Origin: a virus
Taxonomy: Duplodnaviria > Heunggongvirae > Uroviricota > Caudoviricetes
Virus record (IMG/VR): IMGVR_UViG_2660238269_000008
DNA length: 43,719 nt
Strand: one strand, 5' to 3'
In this document: in pieces, positions 5,732 through 6,247 of the stretch
Position numbering within the stretch: position 1 is the stretch's first letter
Layout of the letters: each line of letters opens with the position of its first letter
The notes under the pieces: generated by a model
Seen by the model: the letters and a program-made list of their open reading frames with translations, nothing else
Databases searched by the model: none
What the model was told of the DNA's origin: nothing
Position numbers and translations under genes: made by a program

Positions 5732-6247
5732 GTGATCGCTGAATTAACGGCAGCAATGACGGCTATTCGTGAAACCGCTCAGATTGCAAAACTAATGAAC
5801 GAGGCAAAAACTCAAGCTGAAGTAAATGCGGCTATTGGTGAACTGAACTCAAAGCTTGCATCTATTCAGCACGAATGCGTGTCTCTCGTTGAGCTGGTGA
5901 GCACTTATCAAGAAATAAATGCTTCTCTCAAAGCTAAAATTGCAGAATTTGAAAACTTTGAGGCTCAGACGGAAGGTTATATCCTTAACCAACTTGAGTC
6001 GGGAACTTTTGTGTACTCGAAGGAGGTAACCGTGAACGGCGGCAGCATAATCATGCATCTTTGTCCAAAATGTTTTGGACAAAAGATAGTATCGATACTT
6101 CAACCATTCCCGGTTAGAGAACATGAGTTTTTTCATAAAAGCAGGTGCCTCTACTGTGAAAATCAGTTTCTTATGAATAAAAATCCGGATTATGTATCGC
6201 CTCCATCTATTGAGGAGTTGGCCAGAAAACTGAACGGCAATCTGTAG
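5732..6247 (+). CDS. Coiled-coil plus C-terminal zinc-ribbon protein (CxxC...17...CxxC), function unknown; immunity-region moron
   Basis: ORF on the strand opposite the early-left genes; GTG start with AAGAG 8 nt upstream (ATG at 5756 also possible); protein-like composition; AT-rich. Confidence 0.6.
   Translation: MIAELTAAMTAIRETAQIAKLMNEAKTQAEVNAAIGELNSKLASIQHECVSLVELVSTYQEINASLKAKIAEFENFEAQTEGYILNQLESGTFVYSKEVTVNGGSIIMHLCPKCFGQKIVSILQPFPVREHEFFHKSRCLYCENQFLMNKNPDYVSPPSIEELARKLNGNL

Follow-up and report, generated by a model that had tools for sequence, protein, structure and literature searches.

A Probable Rip1-Family Defense Gene Behind a P22 sieB-Type Leader in a Lambdoid Prophage of Escherichia coli

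Introduction

The 43,719-nucleotide (nt) stretch of DNA recorded as IMG/VR IMGVR_UViG_2660238269_000008, referred to throughout as the window, is a lambdoid prophage of Escherichia coli, and on its plus strand at 5732..6247, between the early-left genes and the repressor, it carries a gene that is annotated as a hypothetical protein wherever it occurs in complete E. coli genomes. We consider it likely that this gene encodes an unannotated member of the Rip1 family, a single-protein abortive-infection defense of prophages, with the function assigned by homology. It is thus not a new kind of system, and the part most worth following is the leader in front of the gene, a conserved non-coding region homologous to the promoter and leader of P22 sieB. 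Rip1 was reportedly described by Patel, McCarthy, Taylor et al. in Nature 651:1060-1067 (2026).

The founding Rip1, according to a review, is a Pseudomonas aeruginosa prophage protein whose gene lies between the small and large terminase genes; its N-terminal part turns into an amphipathic helix and its C-terminal half touches a phage ring (PMC13434031). Secondary accounts further describe a protein that stops superinfecting phages and is non-toxic by itself, and from which phages escape by mutation of the portal in Pseudomonas phages or of the small terminase in E. coli phages (PMC13434031, PMC12908700, PMC13601566). Twelve Rip1 subunits surround the 11-mer small-terminase ring, and the complex is a pore, as seen by dye release from liposomes and premature lysis; homologs are described in the same accounts as common across proteobacterial prophages (PMC13434031, PMC12908700, PMC13601566).

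Membership in the Rip1 family

The assignment is carried by sequence profiles, pairwise comparison and predicted structure. The profile of the family matches Rip1 (chain L of PDB entry 9oox) over its full length with an expectation value (E) of 3e-28, a profile built from the close Enterobacterales relatives of the window protein only reaches E 4e-23, and the single sequence gives E 1.1e-7 (phmmer). Entry 9oox is the cryo-electron microscopy (cryo-EM) structure of HK446 Rip1 (F846_gp37, YP_007111990.1) bound to the small terminase of T6. By BLASTP, the window protein is 27% identical to HK446 Rip1 (E 2e-12) and 29% identical to the phage protein DMS3-25 (E 1e-20); since these two are mutually 31% identical, the window protein falls within the span of the family. 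Its AlphaFold model (predicted local distance difference test, pLDDT, 91.5) aligns by Foldseek with chain M of 9oox at E 4e-7 and a probability of 1.00, with a template modeling (TM) score of 0.73 normalized to the target or 0.56 normalized to the query. The 120 aligned columns of this structural match span about the residues that are resolved in the cryo-EM chains, and the sequence homology is full-length. In the PDB, chains of 9oox are the sole significant Foldseek matches, every other entry having E ≥0.09.

These results bear directly on an initial annotation of the window, made from its letters without database searches, which had proposed a lysogen-expressed exclusion or defense gene in the position where sieB is found. 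That proposal is supported by the homology to Rip1, by the shared genomic slot and by the P22 sieB-type leader, and the defense-gene interpretation as a whole is supported by homology to a characterized family, predicted structure and genomic context. The profile search that it suggested as a check gave no PADLOC match and led, through the PDB, to the Rip1 defense protein (E 3e-28). Its statement that no lambdoid protein matches has to be withdrawn, as HkaP of HK620, HkaP of HK630 and HK446 gp37 (Rip1) all do. The window protein has no match to the SieB model PF14163, and neither a second rip1-like gene nor a sieB gene was found in the window, including by a six-frame search with SieB sequences.

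The predicted architecture follows that of Rip1. The N-terminal helical part (residues 2-79; 5735..5968, plus strand) comprises helices at 2-23 and 28-79, is modeled by AlphaFold2 with pLDDT 79-97 and aligns with residues 14-95 of HK446 Rip1. The initial annotation had called this part a coiled coil; two long helices are indeed predicted, and they are better read, by analogy, as the putative counterpart of the amphipathic, pore-lining part of Rip1. No hydrophobic 20-mer was found in the protein. The C-terminal beta/zinc-ribbon domain (residues 84-150; 5981..6181, plus strand; pLDDT 94-97) would be the counterpart of the half with which Rip1 contacts a phage ring. Its four cysteines, C111, C114, C139 and C142, are encoded at 6062-6064, 6071-6073, 6146-6148 and 6155-6157 of the plus strand, align with the CxxC pairs of HK446 Rip1, HkaP and DMS3-25 and, along with G91 and Y95, are invariant in 58 homologs, so that the CPKC...CLYC motif noticed at the outset is present with all four cysteines invariant, separated by a spacer of 24 residues rather than the 17 first given. 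Metal binding by this domain is putative. The C-terminal tail, residues 151-171, is not common to the characterized Rip1 proteins.

The gene, its reading frame and its distribution

The coding sequence (CDS) runs from a GTG start at 5732 to a TAG stop at 6245-6247 and encodes 171 amino acids (aa). It is identical to WP_000559918.1, a "hypothetical protein" CDS of the Prokaryotic Genome Annotation Pipeline (PGAP) in E. coli 2011C-3911, and the extent and length of about 170 aa originally called for this open reading frame (ORF) were therefore exact. The AT-rich composition that was remarked on is likewise borne out, with 41.5% GC in the ORF vs 51.6% in the whole window. Between the window gene and the copy in PhiR49_1, nucleotide differences at the first, second and third codon positions of the plus frame number 7, 3 and 16, and because of this bias and the thousands of homologs, it is the plus frame that selection maintains. 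This is a genuine gene, kept by purifying selection. The minus-strand ORF at 5849..6286, dismissed early on as non-coding, is a codon-aligned shadow frame of the CDS, which stays open because the sense codons TTA, CTA and TCA, the sole source of stops in it, occur only at codons 5, 21 and 40.

Longer readings on the plus strand were tried and rejected, because single-base insertions and deletions in alignments of the leader mark that region as non-coding. An upstream ORF at 5500..5742 (80 aa), which overlaps the GTG, has no family matches, and homology to other loci starts only at 5625. An alternative TTG start at 5690 (185 aa) fails on the homology from 5625 onward and the 1-nt indels in the leader, and on the same grounds the annotated start of the 243-aa CDS of PhiR49_1 (locus L006; PV340568.1 4237..4965), which lies 5′ of the leader and reads through it, is very probably wrong.

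The gene is carried by 653 of 5426 complete E. coli genomes, many of them O157:H7; its location is always chromosomal and its label always "hypothetical". Intact copies (≥80% coverage) are found in 645 complete E. coli genomes. None of the 119 close homologs in Enterobacterales bears a name, a profile search of 1.84 billion cluster representatives yields 3194 relatives, and the PHROGs match is to phrog_1244 (E 1e-57), a family of unknown function.

Proposed mechanism and its weighing

By homology with Rip1, the lysogen would make the window protein at a low level, and the protein alone would be harmless. Once a superinfecting phage enters late development, the C-terminal zinc-ribbon/beta domain would bind its small-terminase or portal rings, about twelve subunits would gather around a ring, and their N-terminal helices would form an inner-membrane pore, leading to cell death before the progeny are complete. 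The prophage in the window encodes such ring proteins of its own, Nu1 at 26453..27001 and a lambda-type portal at 29088..30680.

Several observations weigh against this assignment. Scans of the protein with Pfam, NCBIfam and PADLOC (2023) returned nothing or sub-threshold coiled-coil noise. The hydrophobic moment of residues 5-30 reaches 0.35-0.41, which is not significant when compared with shuffled sequences (p ~0.08-0.2). At just 27-29% identity to characterized Rip1 proteins, trigger specificity, and even activity, could differ. This low identity, the non-significant N-terminal amphipathicity and the tail at 151-171 would also fit a diverged relative that has kept the fold and taken on another job, such as another exclusion route or the regulation of early genes through its zinc ribbon. 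We regard such a change of function as unlikely, given that the full-length homology is collinear and retains every invariant residue, that the window protein is no farther from HK446 Rip1 and DMS3-25 than those are from each other, that its gene occupies the same genomic slot as HK446 rip1, and that its significant structural neighbors are 9oox chains only. One might also take the gene for a decaying remnant without current function in a defective prophage, considering that the integrase is split by an insertion sequence, IS1, and that a related copy in locus L026 has an internal stop codon. However, the ORF is intact both here and in those 645 genomes, the differences concentrate at the third codon position, the leader is conserved and the late genes of the prophage look intact, all of which make decay very improbable. 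Membership in Rip1, with a defensive function, accordingly stays our preferred account of the protein.

A conserved promoter and leader shared with P22 sieB

The leader occupies about 107 nt at 5625..5731 of the plus strand and aligns with the regions 5′ of hkaP in HK620 and HK630, of rip1 in HK446 and of sieB in P22 (alignments A3 and A4), where it is far better conserved than the protein. It contains an invariant hairpin, GCCTG-N13-CAGGC, at 5633..5655, followed by GGTGG at 5658-5662. Next come two direct plus-strand copies of TCCCCAACAACAA, at 5672..5684 and 5705..5717, the sole 13-mer repeated within 60 nt anywhere in the window, where shuffled sequences average 0.05 such repeats. The initial annotation had reported both copies, placing the first correctly and the second one base too early, at 5704; they are not peculiar to this gene and belong to the conserved leader, with its predicted promoter and candidate antisense RNA.

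In BK000583, the P22 record, the annotated features include the sieB promoter (29690..29720), the start of the sieB RNA (29727) and the ATG (29758). This places the −10 hexamer TAAACT of P22 between the repeats, with copy 1 over the −35 region and the RNA beginning on the first base of copy 2. By positional homology to this promoter, PsieB, the −10 hexamer in the window is predicted to be TAATCT at 5694..5699 of the plus strand, extended by a TG at 5691-5692; TATAAT or TAAAAT stands here in other leaders. Copy 1 would then lie over the −35 region and copy 2 at the mRNA 5′ end. A PsieB-type promoter is thus predicted between the repeats, with a start at about 5705-5706, a 5′ untranslated region of 26 nt and, as the ribosome-binding site, the Shine-Dalgarno-like AAGAG at 5719..5723 (plus strand), 8 nt 5′ of the GTG, whose AGAG is kept in all aligned leaders. 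A terminator scan found none after the gene.

At least five alleles of the repeat exist (TCCCCAACAAC, ACCCCTACAG, TTCCACAGTCAA, CCCCAATGCAA and CCCCCACAA). The two copies always change jointly, and the distance between them stays at 33-35 nt.

A candidate antisense RNA

In P22, the cis-antisense RNA sas blocks the translation of SieB during lytic growth and thereby spares the phage its own exclusion (Ranade & Poteete 1993, as cited in PMC12197685 and PMC7067206), and RNA-seq places it at 11,387-11,513 on the minus strand (PMC13397905, Table 2). Mapped to locus L207 (1079..1205), sas covers the sieB start codon, the Shine-Dalgarno sequence and both repeats, with the conserved hairpin at its 3′ end. 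By leader homology (A4) and the extent of P22 sas, the corresponding RNA of the window is predicted at 5629..5736 on the minus strand.

RNAalifold was applied to 26 diverse two-repeat leaders aligned in antisense orientation; as these had been gathered with a pattern that fixes the 3′ hairpin, covariation of the 3′ helix is uninformative. Around the complement of copy 1, the minus strand forms a hairpin of 10 pairs, 8 of which show compensatory changes, and none of 500 shuffles reaches its covariation score; in the window it is predicted at 5664..5686 (minus strand), with the stem CCUUGUUGUU/AAUAACAGG and the loop GGGG. The hairpin cells are paired in 91.9% of cases on the minus strand, vs 27-47% in slid controls and 76.0% when the plus strand is read, and G-U pairs, possible on the minus strand alone, account for 47 of the 258 cells. 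These counts favor a structured minus-strand RNA. The leader as a whole has no significantly stable fold on either strand (z-scores +0.7 and +0.6), the local hairpin alone having covariation support.

The complement of copy 1 supplies the GGGG of the loop and, with its remainder, the 5′ arm of the stem. Because copy 1 equals copy 2, this hairpin is complementary to the mRNA 5′ end, which would explain the joint change of the copies. During lytic growth, a sas-like RNA running on the minus strand from about 5736 to 5629 would block translation of the rip1-like gene, as sas does for P22 sieB, with the copy-1 complement in its hairpin pairing with copy 2 where the mRNA begins, and such a block would spare the prophage from its own defense. 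The covarying hairpin, which pairs better on the minus strand, suggests sas-like antisense control of the window gene. To the composite claim, that transcription starts on the plus strand at about 5705 from a PsieB-type promoter, that a sas-like antisense RNA exerts a lytic block and that the repeat is kept by pairing, we would give an even chance.

What holds us back are several negative observations. A generic sigma-70 scan of 5600-5731 finds no promoter, and the proposed −10 TAATCT is weak and the −35 poor. For the antisense RNA, the minus strand at 5737-5800 offers no promoter consensus, and inspection by eye of the opening 80 nt of each CDS (window, P22, HK620 and HK446) turned up nothing convincing. 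No U-run follows the 3′ hairpin of the window. Nor is an internal start of the P22 Esc type evident in the gene, the in-frame ATGs at codons 9 and 22 being without a Shine-Dalgarno sequence. Alternatively, the leader may serve solely as a promoter and as a junction where recombination swaps cargo genes, with no antisense RNA, and a DNA-binding factor may recognize the repeats as operator-like sites at −35 and +1. The repeats sit at classic operator positions, over the −35 and at the +1 of the promoter as mapped in P22, and the boundary of the mobile cassette at 5625, discussed below, coincides with the start of the leader; with no antisense promoter found and no U-run, this account is a serious contender, though one we hold to be rather less than evenly probable. 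Against it, the P22 region is the template of sas, as seen by RNA-seq (PMC13397905), the control of sieB by sas has been shown genetically (Ranade & Poteete 1993, as cited in PMC12197685), and the copy-1 hairpin covaries with 47 G-U pairs specific to the minus strand, which a DNA operator does not predict.

One control region, many cargo genes

The leader is not confined to rip1-like genes. Its core, GCCTG(N)CTTTTMRCCACRTCAGGC..GGTGG, is present in at least 120 IMG/VR loci (L087-L206), ahead of differing genes. Among the matches listed, the cargo genes start about 95-105 nt downstream of the core and include SieB of both the P22 and the lambda/Rac types (PF14163, matched at E 1e-13 to 1e-29 by SieB genes behind this type of leader), Rip1-family genes (15 of 121), a 144-aa protein, a membrane protein of about 95 aa and a GhoS-like protein of 92 aa. 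In locus L132, the 136-aa cargo protein likewise combines a coiled coil at the N-terminus with a CPNC...CSFC motif at the C-terminus; it is not matched by the Rip1 profile and could be either a very distant relative or an analogous one. The "sieB slot" hence looks like a hotspot of cargo swapping with a common control region.

A second, shorter class of leaders (class II; L092, L100, L148, L155, L185, L199 and others) has the same core without the two repeats. In these leaders an extended −10 can be read in GGTGG-TATCCT and a −35 in the TTAACC of the hairpin loop, after which comes a hairpin whose 3′ arm holds the ribosome-binding site. The stems of this hairpin differ among loci yet stay complementary, as in CCUCU/AGAGG, CCUUCUU/AAGAAGG, UUCUUGG/CCAAGAA and AUCCUUAAAA/UUUUAAGGAU.

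It is tempting to view the slot as a general hotspot for defense cargo under one control cassette, made of a promoter flanked by a two-copy motif and of a structured, sas-like RNA whose hairpin loop is complementary to the cargo mRNA at its 5′ end and which silences the cargo in lytic growth. We put this forward tentatively and think it somewhat more apt to fail than to hold. If it were true, Rip1-family genes, SieB and several uncharacterized proteins would all be silenced by antisense RNA during the lytic growth of their own phage, the five or more co-varying repeat alleles would set which phages switch off each other's defenses, and the window gene would be the first Rip1 with its self-immunity explained through an antisense RNA.

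Prophage setting

The early-left part of the window is encoded on the minus strand, with an integrase, an excisionase, a RecE-like exonuclease (2194..4737), a DUF1482 gene (4830..5024) and dicB (5015..5203), encoding DicB. On the far side of the window gene follow, also on the minus strand, a DUF1391/YdfA gene (6361..6513) and a CI-type repressor (6683..7072), and beyond the repressor a cro-like gene and replication genes lie on the plus strand. The late genes (Nu1, gpA, portal, gpC, gpE, tape measure) resemble those of lambda. The window gene, with dicB on one side and ydfA and the repressor on the other, is oriented against the early-left genes, in agreement with the placement first given for it. 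In P22, sieB is found between ral and gene 24, hkaP of HK620 between cIII and hkaQ/N, and HK446 rip1, on the opposite strand, has a ral-like gene/cIII on one side and N on the other; the window gene occupies the same opposite-strand, early-left slot as these three.

The gene and its leader also travel together. Compared with PhiR49_1, which has a CPS-53-like backbone, nucleotide identity is 94.6% exactly at 5625..6284 (plus strand, 660 bp), and the flanks are unrelated. As this segment is common to an otherwise unrelated backbone, the moving unit consists of the 107-nt leader, the gene and 37 nt past its stop.

An IS1 element (InsA 860..1135, InsB-like 1054..1536; element ~830-1550) interrupts the integrase (intact in E. 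coli 2011C-3911), and because of this interruption the prophage copy is probably unable to excise. The gap at 5204-5624, between dicB and the cassette, is unannotated, and its ORFs have no family match. For the interval from dicB to the gene, DicF and other known RNAs were considered and rejected, the Rfam search at E ≤1 giving only a sub-threshold STnc100 match at 5171..5388 (minus strand). A terminator-like hairpin at 5406..5387 of the minus strand is followed by ATTTTT, and a GC-rich hairpin at 6646-6661, just downstream of the repressor, has T-runs on both strands and resembles a terminator working in both directions, an analog of tIMM in HK620.

Farther along, the early-right region contains a sok antisense RNA at 12267-12441 of the plus strand (Rfam, 116 bits), part of a hok/sok-type toxin-antitoxin locus; hokD is annotated at the corresponding place in the reference genome. 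Five strong Rfam matches to STnc100 (120-172 bits), four of them in tandem, are located at 19030-19242 and 21002-21981 of the plus strand, within the late regulatory region and downstream of a pair of tRNA genes (18055..18213). The tRNAs are adjoined by moron-like genes at 18495-18923 and 19619-20344 (plus strand), whose products are a TolA C-terminal domain protein (E 6e-23) and an AraC-family regulator, and 22209..24173 encodes a NanS-p-like esterase (DUF1737 + SASA + DUF6645).

Implications

About one in eight complete E. coli genomes, including O157:H7 and other Shiga toxin-producing E. coli (STEC), carries this gene under the label "hypothetical protein". Assignment to Rip1 gives it a testable function, an abortive, pore-forming defense triggered by phage packaging rings, which matters for host range in phage therapy and for competition among prophages of pathogenic E. 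coli. The Rip1 family is so far missed by Pfam, NCBIfam and the PADLOC models of 2023. The leader, in turn, ties the P22 sieB/esc/sas paradigm of 1993 to a defense family of 2026, and its control cassette could serve to find further defense genes, candidates being the 144-aa, the ~95-aa membrane and the 136-aa zinc-ribbon cargo proteins.

Comparison with known systems

The closest parallel is HK446 Rip1, which is collinear with the window protein and shares its two N-terminal helices, its beta/zinc-ribbon domain and the same CxxC...CxxC motif, and whose gene likewise lies on the opposite strand within the PL operon of a lambdoid phage, behind the same type of leader. HK446 Rip1 has 164 aa, whereas the window protein has 171, begins about 13 residues later and ends in an extra C-terminal tail of 20 residues. 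The window leader has the repeat allele CCCCAACAAC instead of the CCCCTACAG of HK446, and the window prophage is Rac/Qin-like (RecE, DicB, YdfA), with no adjoining N gene.

HkaP of HK620 and HK630 is 30% identical to the window protein (E 6e-14) and has the same slot and the same leader, with another repeat allele. The HK620 record names hkaP a "putative superinfection exclusion protein", an annotation of 2001 made on position alone; a literature search for "hkaP" returned only a biosensor paper that uses the flanking intergenic regions, and no characterization under that name.

The proteins of Pseudomonas Mu-like phages (DMS3-25, D3112 orf25, JBD30, MP38 ORF25) have the same architecture and are likewise encoded by a single gene facing against its neighbors. 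DMS3-25, however, is a late-region gene flanked by those of the small and large terminase, which matches the founding Pseudomonas Rip1 as described in PMC13434031, whereas the window gene is in the immunity region; the region upstream of DMS3-25 is GC-rich and unrelated, with no sieB-type leader.

In the SieB/Esc/sas system of P22, SieB (PF14163; P22, lambda, Rac) is unrelated to the window protein and has a hydrophobic N-terminus, whereas the slot, the orientation, and the promoter and leader with their hairpin, two repeats and −10 position are alike, and SieB, too, is an abortive-type exclusion expressed from the prophage.

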